Assembly (NCBI GenBank): GCA_964016885.1
Contig: OZ024740.1
Span: forward strand, 352,532,001-352,596,000
From: Eledone cirrhosa
Lineage: Eukaryota
DNA: 64,000 bases
Direction of reading: 5' to 3'
Each line of letters begins with the position of its first letter. The stretch's first letter is position 1. The notes beneath the pieces were generated by a model. It did no database searches. It was not told the DNA's origin and was given only the letters and a program-made list of their open reading frames with translations. Positions 29,655 to 63,148 of the stretch are shown here, in pieces. The position numbers and the translations under genes are program-made.

Positions 29655-31468
29655 ATAAAAGACGTAAAATAAGAAAATATTTTTAAAAAAAATTTTAAAA
29701 AATTTTTTTTACTTACTTACTTAAATTTTCACTCCAACTAATTAGTTTCTGCAATGGGATAAAGACAGTTACGTAATTCAACTGTCGAGAATTCATTGCG
29801 TCATCAGGCAGTCTATTCTCAGTTAAGTCTCCAGGCAATGCGCGGACACTGGCGGCTCATATAAAAATAATAATAATTCGGTAGATAGAACAGCTGGCGA
29901 GGACTGGATTCTATGTACCGAAATTCTCACTGCTTCCAGTCAAATGGCCGATTCTAAAGAATCAATCACGTGACATAGAGGCTAGTTAGAAGGAATGGAA
30001 TGGTAAGATGACTGACGCCTACTAACACCCAAAAAAAAAAAAAAAAAATTTTTTTAGAAGTGGTTTTGGCAAGTTTGCTCGACAAATCAGTGATTTGGAG
30101 ATAAATATAGATAATTTAATATATCAACTAACATAAGCGCACAGATGCACGCCCATGCTAGCAAATACACAGGTTATGTCATAGTACCTAGGTGGTTCAA
30201 TGCAGGAGAATGCAGAACAATAATATAAAAGACGTAAAATAAGAAATATTTTTTAAAAAAATTTAAAAAATTTTTTTACTTACTTAAATTTTCACTCCAA
30301 CTAATTAGTTTCTGCAATGGGATAAAGACAGTTACGTAATTCAACTGTCGAGAATTCATTGCGTCATCAGGGAGTCTATTCTCAGTTAAGTCTCCAGGCA
30401 ATGCGCGGACACTGGCGGCTCATATAAAAATAATAATAATTCGGTAGATAGAACAGCTGGCGAGGACTGGATTCTATGTACCGAAATTCTCACTGCTTCC
30501 AGTCAAATGGCCGATTCTAAAGAATTAATCACGTGACATAGAGGCTAGTTAGAAGGAATGGGATGGTAAGATGACTGACGCCTACTAACACCCCCCAAAA
30601 AAAAATATTTTTTAGAAGTGGTTTTGGCAAGTTTGCTCGACAAATCAGTGATTTGGAGATATATATAGATAATTTAATATATCAACTAACATAAGCGCAC
30701 AGATGCACGCCCATGCTAGCAAATACACAGGTTATGTCATAGTACCTAGGTGGTTCAATGCAGGAGAATGCAGAACAATAATATAAAAGACGTAAAATAA
30801 GAAAATATTAAAAAAAAAATTTTTTTTAAATTTGTTTACTTACTTACTTAAATTTTCACTCCAACTAATTAGTTTCTGCAATGGGATAAAGACAGTTACG
30901 TAATTCAACTGTCGAGAATTCATTGCGTCATCAGGGAGTCTATTCTCAGTTAAGTCTCCAGGCAATGCGCGGACACTGGCGGCTCATATAAAAATAATAA
31001 TAATTCGGTAGATAGAACAGCTAGCAAGGACTGGATTCTATGTACCGAAATTCTCACTGCTTCCAGTCAAATGGCCGATTCTAAAGAATCAATCACGTGA
31101 CATAGAGGCTAGTTAGAAGGAATGGGATGGTAAGATGACTGACGCCTACTAACACCCCCCCGAAAAAAAAAATATTTTTTAGAAGTGGTTTTGGCAAGTT
31201 TGCTCGACAAATCAGTTATTTGGAGATAAATATAGATAATTTAATATATCAACTAACATAAGCGCACAGATGCACGCCCATGCTAGCAAATACATAGGTT
31301 ATGTCATAGTACCTAGGTGGTTCAATGCAGGAGAATGCAGAACAATAATATAAAAGACGTAAAATAAGAAAATATAAAAAAAAAAAATTTTTTTTAATTT
31401 TTTTACTTACTTACTTAAATTTTCACTCCAACTAATTAGTTTCTGCAATGGGATAAAGACAGTTACGT
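29655..31468 (-). mobile_element. Retrozyme-like tandem array: 3.2 copies of a ~565-bp non-coding monomer, one HHR per monomer
   Basis: GACGTAAAATAAG at 29661, 30231, 30789, 31356. HHRs on minus at 29731-29812, 30294-30375, 30858-30939, partial at 31425-31468. (TA)n on both sides. Confidence 0.9.
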
Positions 31469-31539
31469 ATATATATATATATATATATATATATATATAT
31501 ATATATATATATATATATATATATATATATATATATATA

Positions 31540-32875
31540 CTAGAAGCTGAACCCGGGGCCACTTTTTATTAAGTTAATAATTTGAAAAATATTATTGAAA
31601 GTTTATTATAAAGAAGCAGTTTCAGGAAAAAATAGAAATATGCACTTGAGGCTGGACGGTGTACAATGAGAAGTGGCGCGATGTGAAAAGCGTTGTTTAT
31701 TAACAGCGAAATAACAATATCGATGATATGCAATTTGAAAAATACTACTTACTGTTAGTGGTGGTTTACATGTATTAGAATTAAAATTAGATTTTTGATT
31801 TATCTTTTGAACAAAATAAATATTTATTTACAGTTTCTCACAGAAAAACTATGCTTCATTTTTACATGAATATTTATTTACAGTTTTTAAGTTTTTAACC
31901 GAAACACTATGCTTCATTTTTACATGAATATTTATTTATAGTTTTTAACAGAAAAAAAATTGCTGCGAAATACATTTTTTTTTAACACATGATACGTCAC
32001 GAAGGTAAATGTTTCGAAAAAATGTTAAACTGTATATCGCAACAATATATTGTTTAAAGAAATTATTTTTCTGTTGTTTAAAACTGTAAATCTGTTTTTA
32101 AAAAAATGTATTTAACCGAAACACATGAATATTTATTTACAGTTTTTAACAAAAAAAAATTGCTGCGAAATACATTTTTTTAAAAACAGATTTACAGTTT
32201 TTAACAACAGAAAAAAATTTCTTTAAACAATATATTGTTGTGATATACAGTTTAACATTTTTTCGAAACATTTACCTTCGTGACGTATCGTGTGGTGGGT
32301 GGAGCTAATAATTGAATGTCGATGATGATAATTTAGGACACTAAAACCAAGTATCGCCAAGGGTTTAATTTCTTTTGATGGAAAACAGTGACCGTACTGC
32401 AGAATCGATTTCATAAAACGGTACTGTATGATCGTTAAATGTAGAAGGATAATAGTTTATTAACAGCGAAATAGCAATGTCGATGATATGCAAGTTTAAA
32501 AATGCATATTATGAGGGTTTGTATGATAGTTTACACATTTTCCTGAAACTGCTTCTTTATAATAAACTTTCAATATTTTTCAAATTATTGGTACTGTATG
32601 TTAACAGCGAAAGAACGTTGATGAGTTTAAAAATGTGTATGAAATTGTAAATAAGACAAAAGTATTAGAACAGGGGGAAATAACTCACCGAACGCGATAG
32701 TTTTGGGGCCCCAGGGACCACATTTTTCAAGTTAGAGATTTGAAACCTCATCTATTTGCTTCCTTGGCACTTTTGACATAGGTGTGTAAATTTTCATGTC
32801 AGTCCGACCACGTCTACTACCATTTAACCGTGCACATTTGAATTTCAACCACCTCCATTTCACAAATATATTATA
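31540..32875 (-). mobile_element. Probable non-autonomous Helitron with internal inverted duplications
   Basis: Minus 3' end ...CCCCGGGTTCAGCTTCTAG|T. Inverted repeats 31991-32113/32168-32290 and ~31573-31632/32537-32590. Confidence 0.5.
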
Positions 32876-33042
32876 TATATATATATATATATATATATAT
32901 ATGAAAAGTGTAATTTTCTACACAAAACGAAGGTTATAGAGAAAATTGAGGTTGGTAATGGCACATGGAATATATAAGAGACAGAATACTTTTTTGTGAA
33001 AAAACATAATTTTATAAGGTAAGGAAATAATAAAGGGTATAA

Positions 33043-33090
33043 AAAATGACCGGTTTCGATGGGTCTGCAAAAGCCATCTTTTCAAATGTT
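33043..33090 (-). ncRNA. Type-I hammerhead, U3-A8 variant
   Basis: AACAT-TTGAAAA-GATGG..CCATC-GAAA-CCGG-TC-ATTTT. Confidence 0.7.
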
Positions 33091-60899: not shown

Positions 60900-61085
60900 T
60901 TATCTAAAGACATATTTTCCAATTTCACCCCGCCCGTCCCTTCAATCTATCTTATTTCTCATTCTTTCTTCTGACGAAGGACTAGCGTCCGAAACGTTAA
61001 GACCCTTTTCCTGGTATTTCAACCTAATATATTCCTTCCATATACTGTGCCGATTGTATTGTTATTTCTGGTTACCTTTTACATA
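60900..61085 (+). mobile_element. Solo pLTR of the 46160 family with intact minimal HHR (60967-61002)
   Basis: TCTT-CTGACGA-AGGAC-TAGC-GTCC-GAAA-CGT-T-AAGA. Confidence 0.88.
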
Positions 61086-61239
61086 CATATATGTATATAT
61101 ATATATAGTCGGGACTTTGAAGAAAAAATAGGTATATTTTTGTCTATTATTTCCTCATATTTTATAATTTGATATATACATATAATTACCCGATAGATGA
61201 ATATGAATAAGTATTATATATATATATATATATCCATGT

Positions 61240-61288
61240 CATGTTTGATGATCCTGTGAGTGCACAGGTGAAACTTCAGAGCAACATG
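61240..61288 (+). ncRNA. Degenerate hammerhead; partial inverted copy at 63472-63521, related fold-back at 54290-54392
   Basis: CATGT-TTGATGA-TCCTGTG-AGTG-CACAGGT-GAAA-CTTCAGAG-CA-ACATG. Confidence 0.65.
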
Positions 61289-61339
61289 ACTCATCTATTA
61301 GCCATTACATATATATATATATATATATATATATATATA

Positions 61340-63148
61340 TGAAAGACGTAAAATAAGAAAATTAAAAAAATTAAAAATCAACTTACTTACTAAAATTTTC
61401 ACTCCAACTAATTAGTTTCTGTAAGGGGATAAATATAGTTACGTAATATAACTATAGAGAATTCCTTACGTCATCAGGGAGTCTATTCTCAGCTAAGTTC
61501 CCAGGCGATGCGCGGACACTAGGAACCCATATAAAAATAATAATTCAGTGGATGGAATAAAGCTAGCGAGGACTAAATTCCAGAGCACTGAAAAAATTCA
61601 CTGCCTCTGGTCAGTGGCAGATTCTAAAGAATCAGTCACGTGACACTGAGGTTAATCAGTTAGGAGCGGGGTGGTATTATGACAAGAGCTTACTACTACC
61701 ATGAATCAGCAGTAAATTTTGGCAAGTTTTGCTCAACAAATAATTTGGAGATAAATATAGAGAATTAGTACATCTACCAACATATGTGTACAGATGTACA
61801 CCCATGCTAGCAAATATATATGTTATGTCTTAGTACCTTTGTGGTTCTATGCAGGGGAATGCAGAACAATTATATGAAAAACGTAAAATAAGAAAATTTT
61901 AAAAATTAAAAATCAACTTACTAAAATTTTCACTCCAACTAATTAGTTTCTGTAAGGGGATAAATATAGTTACGTAATATAACTATAGAGAATTCCTTAC
62001 GTCATCAGGGAGTCTATTCTCAGCTAAGTTCCCAGGCGATGCGCGGACACTAGGAACCCATATAAAAATAATAATTCAGTGGATGGAATAAAGCTAGCGA
62101 GGACTAAATTCCAGAGCACTGAAAAAATTCACTGCCTCTGGTCAGTGGCAGATTCTAAAAAATCAGTCACGTGACACTGAGGTTAATCAGTTAAGAGCAG
62201 GGTGGTATTATGACTAGAGCCTACTACTACCATGAATCAGCAGTAAATTTTGGCAAGTTTTGCTCAACAAATAATTTGGAGATAAATATAGAGAATTAGT
62301 ACATCTACCAACATATGTGTACAGATGTACACCGCCTGGGAACTTAGCTGAGAATAGACTCCCTGATGACGTAAGGAATTCTCTATAGTTATATTATGTA
62401 ACTATATTTATCCCCTTACAGAAACTAATTAGTTGGAGTGAAAATTTTAGTAAGTAAGTTGATTTTTAATTTTTAAAATTTTCTTATTTTTCGTCTTTCA
62501 TATAATTGTTCTGCACCCCCCTGCATAGAACCACAAAGGTACTAAGACATAACATATATATTTGCTAGCATGGGTGTACATCTGTACACATATGTTGGTA
62601 GATGTACTAATTCTCTATATTTATCTCCAAATTATTTGTTGAGCAAAACTTGCCAAAATTTACTGCTGATTCATGGTAGTAGTAGGCTCTTGTCATAATA
62701 CCACCCCGCTCCTAACTGATTAACCTCAGTGTCACGTGACTGATTCTTTAGAATCTGCCACTGACCAGAGGCAGTGAATTTTTTCAGTGCTCTGGAATTT
62801 AGTCCTCGCTAGCTTTATTCCATCCACTGAATTATTATTTTTATATGTTTTCCTAGTGTCCGCGCATCGCCTGGGAACTTAGCTGAGAATAGACTCCCTG
62901 ATGACGTAAGGAATTCTCTATAGTTATATTACGTAACTATATTTATCCCCTTACAGAAACTAATTAGTTGGAGTGAAAATTTTAGTAAGTAAGTTGATTT
63001 TTAATTTTTTAAATTTTCTTATTTTACGTCTTTCATATAATTGTTCTGCATCCCCCTGCATAGAACCACAAAGGTACTAAGACATAACATATATATTTGC
63101 TAGCATGGGTGTACATCTGTACACATATGTTGGTAGATGTACTAATTC
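61340..63148. mobile_element. Retrozyme-like array, ~535-bp monomer, tandem then inverted tandem; HHRs 61401-61482 and 61932-62013 (minus), 62358-62439 and 62893-62974 (plus)
   Basis: Homologous to the 29655 array; orientation switches at ~62333; microsatellite on both sides. Confidence 0.92.

Follow-up and report, generated by a model that had tools for sequence, protein, structure and literature searches.

Three insertions within a 64,000-nucleotide window of the Eledone cirrhosa genome (assembly GCA_964016885.1, contig OZ024740.1, positions 352,532,001 to 352,596,000) carry type I hammerhead motifs whose helix II consists of two stems, a base stem and an apical stem, flanking an internal loop. 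In the reading that we favor, these ribozymes belong to a retrozyme that is likely of the Penelope-like element (PLE) type, and a pseudoknot between the internal loop and the 5' flank of helix I probably replaces the loop 1-loop 2 contact and holds the cutting fold. The window, whose coordinates are used below, is part of a 443-Mb contig in a 3.0-Gb assembly and is rich in (TA)n microsatellites.

What do these motifs look like? Eight full motifs and one partial motif of this family, here called family A, are spread over the three insertions, one per 0.51-0.57-kb tandem-repeat unit. Each runs from a 5' flank through helix I (4-5 bp), CUGAUGA, C, the 6-bp base stem, the internal loop and the apical stem to a 7-nt 3' loop strand, A, GAAA, a palindromic helix III, GUU and the 3' strand of helix I. 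The CUGANGA core, the GAAA, a UH at the three-helix junction and the open helix I make them type I; the cut triplet is GUU in family A and GUA in families B and C, described below. The first insertion (29658..31467, minus strand) is an array of the GCAAUG subfamily with about 3.2 head-to-tail units of 560-571 bp and (TA)n at both ends. It holds copy 1 (29731..29820, C3 at 29807, predicted cut after 29736), copy 2 (30294..30383, C3 at 30370), copy 3 (30858..30947, C3 at 30934) and the partial ninth copy, cut off at the 5'-truncated array end (31424..31467). Copy 2 is intact: helix II spans 30363-30313, helix III is the palindrome ACUAAUUAGU, and the predicted cut falls after 30299, behind GUU. 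The second insertion (56058..56216, minus strand, C3 at 56190, arm 56204-56200, loop 56172-56168) belongs, in 5'-truncated form, to a third tandem subfamily, GAAAGG, with units of ~535 bp; it ends in a private fold-back hairpin that buries its own helix I, and it adjoins an inverted PLE-type open reading frame (ORF) fragment. The third is an array of the GUAAGG subfamily (61341..62333, minus strand, C3 at 61477 and 62008, 3' end in (TA)n) with an inverted continuation on the plus strand (62330..63151, C3 at 62363 and 62898).

All helices named in an earlier, sequence-only reading of the window are present in its sequence. That reading gave ACUCC/GGAGU as the helix I common to the 30 and 61 kb copies, which fails in the 29807 copy, where ACUGC replaces ACUCC, so that a single change breaks the helix. 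Two other interpretations of the 56 kb copy were rejected. It is not a pseudo-LTR (long terminal repeat) of the adjacent ORF, since tandem units of ~535 bp are its relatives and the match goes no further than the fold-back, and it is not a type III motif formed through the upstream hairpin, which is private to that copy and yields no UH site. A repeat of the form CUGAUGA...CAGAAAGUGGGAUUGG was dropped, being without helix I.

Genome-wide, one exact family A pattern has 8,540 matches (control 0), and a further 446 copies carry a different base after A9, including a lineage with A. No Rfam hammerhead model reaches its gathering threshold in the window, and none matches 29600-31500 even at E<=10, in keeping with the proposal that this architecture lies outside the Rfam hammerhead models. 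A pattern scan of metagenomes gave 0 matches.

The 5' strand of the internal loop, UUCUC (30350..30354 in copy 2), is complementary to GAGAA (30379..30383), a conserved single-stranded arm just 5' of helix I that lies 12-14 nt 5' of C3 in family A. Arm and loop very probably form a pseudoknot of 4-8 bp, a view that rests on compensatory changes. The pairing was predicted from the window copies first and compensatory variants were sought afterwards. A family A lineage with a UUUUC loop carries a GGAAAA arm, while its sister lineages retain GAGAA/UUCUC. The arm variant GAHAA occurs in 671 genomic copies; among the 100 matches listed, about 62 (counted by eye) are of the UUUUC lineage with a matching loop, another 6 of this lineage have a damaged loop, and the remaining 32 come from various other lineages. 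Across 24 subfamily representatives, chosen from 40 clusters together with window and locus copies, 98% of pseudoknot cells are paired. The arm-loop run comprises 5-7 Watson-Crick pairs in 11 of 11 family A representatives, and every other flank window matches worse. A 17-row alignment, which includes 4 rows misaligned at the pseudoknot, has 84% of it paired and double changes at 2 pairs. As a nested helix the arm-loop pairing has a probability of 0.001, and it would therefore form only as a pseudoknot; its duplex is worth about -5 kcal/mol, loop costs not counted. The active-like fold lies 2.5 kcal/mol above an inactive minimum-energy fold whose core is mispaired with helix III. Canonical metazoan motifs have a conserved non-canonical loop 1-loop 2 contact, which was not found in these ribozymes; they have no closed loop 1 and no short loop 2, and the covarying pseudoknot occupies the place of that contact. 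Three roles had been offered for the internal loop, namely tertiary contact, protein binding and regulation, and the covariation of its 5' strand with the 5' flank of helix I picks out the tertiary contact.

Helix II itself covaries. Over the same 24 representatives, 96% of 475 aligned cells pair (base stem 99%, apical stem 91%), compared with 38-54% in slid registers, and double changes occupy 48 cells versus 15 in shuffles, a level reached by 0 of 500 shuffles. RNAalifold recovers both stems. On a tree of 16 units, built with the ribozyme and its helix II left out, the base stem has undergone 5 double changes and 2 changes to G.U with no break; its pair 2 changed three times and its pair 5 twice, always on both sides. 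The 3' loop strand retains the sequence motif U-N-U-A in families A and C; pairing of this strand with the 3' flank was rejected, there being no covariation and only runs at control level. Selection on RNA structure, as proposed in the sequence-only reading, is thus supported by tree-aware covariation and by the stable whole-unit folds reported below, and the covariation persists in larger alignments. Some particulars change. Helix II, put at ~51-54 nt, measures 51, 51 and 55 nt between A9 and G12, with both of these excluded, and when folded alone it is clearly structured at 30 kb (z = -4.4) and 61 kb (z = -4.2), with a z of only -1.3 for the 56 kb copy. The base stem GAAAGG/UCUUUC of that copy exists, but UCUUUC is a private mutation and the subfamily has CCUUUC. 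Both covarying hairpins noticed elsewhere in the unit are real, GCGUGC-AUCU-GUGCGC at 30695..30710 (minus strand) and GUGUAC-AUCU-GUACAC at 61786-61801. Another covarying hairpin lies directly upstream of the arm (30395-30435, minus strand), and its GUCC-N-CGC loop motif recurs ~60 nt further upstream.

Sequence comparison confirms the same architecture, with compensatory changes in the putative arm-loop pairing, in three families beyond A. Family B is represented in the window by a hammerhead of family A-like layout (39733..39813, plus strand, C3 at 39744) with arm GAGUU at 39733-39737, loop UACUC at 39757-39761, helix III ACCAUGGU, a predicted cut after 39810 and a tandem unit of ~655 bp. 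A strict pattern finds 284 genomic copies, in which arm and loop read GAG(N)(N)/(N)(N)CUC. Pairs were counted in 65 copies, 10 of the 75 distinct ones being excluded as truncated or for a broken GAG or CUC. Pair 4 is U-A in 32, C-G in 23, U.G in 7 and unpaired in 3; pair 5 is U.U in 26, U-A in 18, A-U in 11, G-C in 4, U.G in 3 and something else in 3. At pair 4, a double change occurs once on the family B tree and a wobble change twice; pair 5 moves stepwise from U-A to U.U to A-U to G-C. Families C and E were reached through a generic arm-core-loop pattern. Its count (13,194 versus 1,810 in the control) and that of another scan (4,374 versus 1,227) take in unrelated repeats and are not copy numbers. 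Family C has 869 copies (control 7) and family E 166 (control 0). A Watson-Crick run of at least 5 is present in 22/30 family C copies and 12/30 family E copies, the misses including truncated and old copies retained in the denominators, as against 3.9% of shuffles. Further pair types appear here (GAGAAG/CUUCUC versus GAGAAA/UUUCUC, UGAAAAU/AUUUUCA, AAGAAA/UUUCUU and UGAGG/CCUCG), the new ones at positions 1, 3, 4 and 6. Moreover, the distances of arm and loop from the core shift together: 10-11 and 10-11 in family B, 12 and 13 in family C, 12-14 and 13-16 in family A. L203, a single decayed copy, was left out. Over 41 lineages, matched arm-loop runs average 4.93 versus 4.65 when swapped within families (p 0.003; since lineages share ancestry, the p-values of these comparisons are only descriptive), and control flanks average 3.0-3.8. 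A common origin of families A and B is not supported (nhmmer E 0.032 and 0.2).

A C-A mismatch in place of G10.1-C11.1 had been put forward as a mark of the subtype. The sequence is as described: among 260 distinct family A copies, the base after A9 is C in 219, A in 36 and U in 5, and the base before G12 is A in 258. In 254 of them the next pair after the C.A is G-C, so that a 10.1-11.1 mismatch and a G10.1-C11.1 pair with one extra base on each side are two descriptions of one sequence. At the same position family B has G-C in 45, A-U in 8, A.C in 4, A.A in 3, U.U in 2 and other combinations in 3 (n=65), and families C and E have mostly G.U, A-U or U.U. Because the position varies among related families, which between them show G-C, A-U, G.U, U.U, A.A, A.C and A.G, the C.A is specific to its family; from this comparison we take it for a relaxed closing pair of helix II and no subtype mark. 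A U.U at 10.1-11.1 is reported for axolotl and bacterial motifs in the texts of PMC7229834 and PMC3088659, and an unpaired base after A9 is given as a trait of PLE hammerheads in that of PMC4209133.

What kind of element carries these ribozymes? Units follow one another head-to-tail with one hammerhead each, at a spacing of 511-571 bp in family A (one of 778), 645-707 bp in family B and 474-489 bp in family C. Sixteen representative family A units are 67-95% identical. The units do not code for protein; they have 35-36% GC, their circular minimum free energies have z of -3.3 to -5.5 in 5/5 units, and the longest ATG frames, in the one window unit tested, are 24 and 27 aa. Of 189 terminal copies, 98 end at a first site ~55-78 nt past the predicted cut and 52 at a second, ~165-195 nt past it, in (TA)n; 28 end elsewhere and 11 are without (TA)n nearby. 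Family C has the same two end sites. The 5' ends are truncated or inverted, and inverted arrays are present, including the one at 62.33 kb. These two-site ends match the two-site PLE tail described in the text of PMC11167929, and the insertion pattern fits PLE-type target-primed reverse transcription from two internal sites, for which an uncut multimer and a circle would serve alike as template. The family A element is, on its sequence features, likely a non-autonomous PLE of the known non-LTR retrozyme class.

Reverse-transcriptase and GIY-YIG-type motifs occur in many broken frames of the window. Pfam has no relevant family for seven ORF fragments from it, and in the Atlas two of the seven fall with animal reverse-transcriptase and GIY-YIG clusters. 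On the basis of these two placements and of known PLE motifs, we take the fragments to be Penelope-like. At L119:780-1560, the end of a PLE-type GIY-YIG frame is joined, without (TA)n, to mid-unit sequence of family A that has the same orientation; the junction may be a reverse-transcriptase template switch, which would name the mobilizing clade. All families carry a splice-donor-like motif 10-25 nt past the predicted cut (30276-30290, minus strand, in the window), as GUAAGU in 209/226 family A and 22/30 family C copies and as GUAUGU in 42/76 family B copies; PLE pseudo-LTRs, according to the text of PMC4209133, hold introns beside the hammerhead. Families A and B both have CACGU...GAUUC...GAAU upstream of the ribozyme, at 190-230 nt in A and ~80 nt in B (30525-30560 and 39655-39690 in the window), the family A form being the nearly invariant palindrome UCACGUGA; from its position this is possibly a promoter element. 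Long local arrays of at least 8 units at L232 (C1:152.49 Mb), L344 (C1:176.45 Mb) and C3:88.38-88.40 Mb have decayed pseudoknots or helices III and are probably satellite-style expansions of dead copies.

How would such a ribozyme work? Arm and loop strand lie at matching distances from the core and run in opposite directions, the arm toward it and the loop strand away, so that their pairing fits parallel helices I and II, which the pseudoknot would align. The apical stem follows the loop strand without a spacer and would stack on the pseudoknot, explaining why it keeps pairing but not sequence. The pseudoknot helix would be spanned by the 7-nt 3' loop strand. Cleavage of multimeric transcripts would take place after GUU, either in monomers with a helix III of 3 bp or in dimers formed through the 10-nt palindrome. 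The cut RNA would then be circularized and copied by a PLE reverse transcriptase, starting 55-78 or 165-195 nt past the cut site and reading through the junction, and this read-through would place more-than-unit inserts in (TA)n. In a type II hammerhead tested in PMC3088659, pseudoknots raise cleavage 20- to over 100-fold, as its text reports.

Several observations weigh against this mechanism. In family B, pair 5 is unpaired in 29/65 copies. The within-family swap test is not significant when G.U is allowed (p 0.29, again a descriptive value), and the formal test of independent pairs contained only 1 pair. The pseudoknot is broken at pair 3 or 4 in the tandem arrays L344 (GAGAA with UGCUC) and L232 and in the single copies L343, L194 and L195. 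When ten ORF fragments of the window were compared by tblastn with the genomic loci examined, no autonomous PLE with this ribozyme came to light. In family A the pair next to the core is a mismatch and the cut triplet is GUU, both of which usually slow hammerheads. The published record adds two points: an Anolis PLE inserts in vitro without any need for cleavage (PMC11167929), and 8/9 Xenopus retrozyme dimers did not cleave (bioRxiv 10.64898/2026.07.22.740005).

Might the pairing be maintained for another purpose? The pseudoknot and apical stem could form and be selected mainly as a binding or stability element, recognized by the PLE reverse transcriptase-endonuclease or a host protein, with cleavage slow or incidental. 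The dispensable cleavage of that PLE in vitro (PMC11167929, in its text), the conservation by sequence of U-N-U-A in the 3' loop strand of families A and C and the relaxed closing pair of helix II across families would all suit such a role. We nevertheless regard it as unlikely, given that the catalytic core is retained in copies found through similarity and not through the core pattern, that the pseudoknot is placed where helix I-II contacts form and shifts with helix length, and that reverse transcription would start 55-195 nt away from it. Alternatively, the pairing may be a brake or timer. Both partners lie 5' of the cut and hence are transcribed first, and the pairing would form during transcription before helix I completes, keeping monomer circles uncut and leaving only tandem dimers to cleave. 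The pairing spares the bases of the core and helix I, however, and is compatible with all three helices; its probability as a nested hairpin is that 0.001, and the tested pseudoknots of this type activate, by the text of PMC3088659. We give a brake little chance, even though helix III is a perfect 10-nt palindrome with a dimer duplex of -9.0 kcal/mol, as in the dimer-cleaving hammerheads described in the text of PMC4209133, and the core is mispaired in the minimum-energy fold of the monomer.

It is very improbable that the covariation arose without selected function, as a by-product of common descent and of fold-backs or template switches in the course of reverse transcription. Four types of single-pair swap are found repeatedly, on different branches and in four families that share little sequence, and adjacent unpaired bases vary freely. 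In favor of such an origin, fold-back junctions do occur (in the 56 kb copy and the inverted array at 62.33 kb), and the independent events per pair are few. A cutting fold held by the pseudoknot stays the reading we prefer. Going beyond it, we can imagine, tentatively and with more doubt than confidence, a distinct type I subtype, defined by a two-part helix II, a loop-to-5'-flank pseudoknot and a relaxed 10.1-11.1 pair, which would have spread to four or more retroelement families and some ten thousand copies in a single animal genome, unseen by Rfam. Such ribozymes would cut fast at physiological Mg2+, the brace would stay in the 5' product, pre-folded for circularization, and cutting would be coupled to splicing through GUAAGU. 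If true, PLE-type hammerheads could no longer be regarded as devoid of tertiary contacts and dependent on dimers or helpers.

Hammerhead-like motifs are unusually frequent in the window. At least six further families have other palindromic helices III, often with a mismatch at the base of helix II, and none is reported by Rfam; their motifs lie at 24740, 24841, 25153, 25755, 36998, 48415, 48678, 50250, 55762, 58554, 59945, 60971, 63312 and 63334. A degenerate hammerhead-like motif with a long helix II (40330-40450, minus strand) stands at the 3' end of a PLE-type element at 41-43 kb and is conserved in L226. Rfam finds a U4 small nuclear RNA match at 56666-56777 on the minus strand (52.8 bits, gathering 46), inside a PLE-type frame on the opposite strand (56360-57270); the match may stem from a U4 fragment that was captured, or from a chimera. 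Long spurious open frames arise from a simple AT/ATAC repeat of 4.6 kb at 3320-7955.

Why does this architecture matter? The texts of PMC4209133 and PMC7761336 portray PLE-type hammerheads as minimal motifs that lack tertiary contacts, have weak activity and play a role not yet known. The present motifs form a large set in nature, in which dozens of variants of a base-paired brace, the GGAAAA/UUUUC and GAGCG/CGCUC lineages among them, allow a direct disrupt-and-rescue test of how important cleavage is to the elements. Since Rfam and descriptors that limit the length of helix II miss such motifs, the number of hammerheads in animal genomes may be underestimated. Moreover, a type I ribozyme that is open-ended, with a Watson-Crick brace that can be programmed and an apical stem that is free to vary, would be a convenient scaffold for RNA switches. 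A two-part helix II with a loop-to-5'-flank pseudoknot was not found in Rfam or in the literature texts searched, whose figures and supplementary alignments could show a similar motif. The non-LTR retrozyme class, pseudoknot-braced hammerheads and a mirror-image type III form are already known.

Closest in genomic habit are the metazoan non-LTR retrozymes (PMC7229834; bioRxiv 10.64898/2026.07.22.740005), which their texts describe as tandem repeats of low GC that do not code for protein, carry a single type I hammerhead in each unit, number thousands of copies, have a stable predicted circular fold and co-occur with PLEs. Their units were first described as ~300 bp, compared with 0.48-0.68 kb here, and the range of 51-972 bp in the 2026 preprint covers both. 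Their helix II is ~4 bp with a small loop, whereas ours takes 45-60 nt in two stems, and their loop contacts are conserved and non-canonical where we find a predicted Watson-Crick pseudoknot. The minimal PLE hammerheads with small palindromic helices III (PMC4209133) share, according to their text, a helix I of 4-6 bp without a clear loop 1, the palindromic helix III, the unpaired base after A9, high diversity within a genome, PLE-style tails and inversions. They are described with a simple 6-8-bp helix II and without tertiary contacts; here, in contrast, helix II contains an internal loop and an apical stem and takes part in a covarying pseudoknot, and in family A another base, the one before G12, is also unpaired.

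The brace itself has precedents. In the pseudoknot-braced hammerheads of bacteria, phages and the human C10orf118 intron (PMC3088659), pairing in the helix I-II region replaces loop-loop contacts, as it probably does in families A, B, C and E, and bracing pseudoknots occur in about 40% of representatives. By the text of that study, the terminal loop pairs with a tail, stem II is often short at 2 bp, and an internal-loop partner in a long helix II does not appear. The atypical type III hammerheads of toad and termite hepatitis delta virus (HDV)-like RNAs and of dipteran genomes (PMC7936874), as their text presents them, likewise have a two-part helix with an extra hairpin cap, and the 5' strand of their internal loop forms Watson-Crick pairs with the other arm. 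They are the mirror image of the Eledone motifs: there helix I is in two parts and pairs with the terminal loop of helix II, whereas here helix II is the two-part helix, its partner is the open 5' flank, and the ribozyme is of type I and resides in a retroelement.

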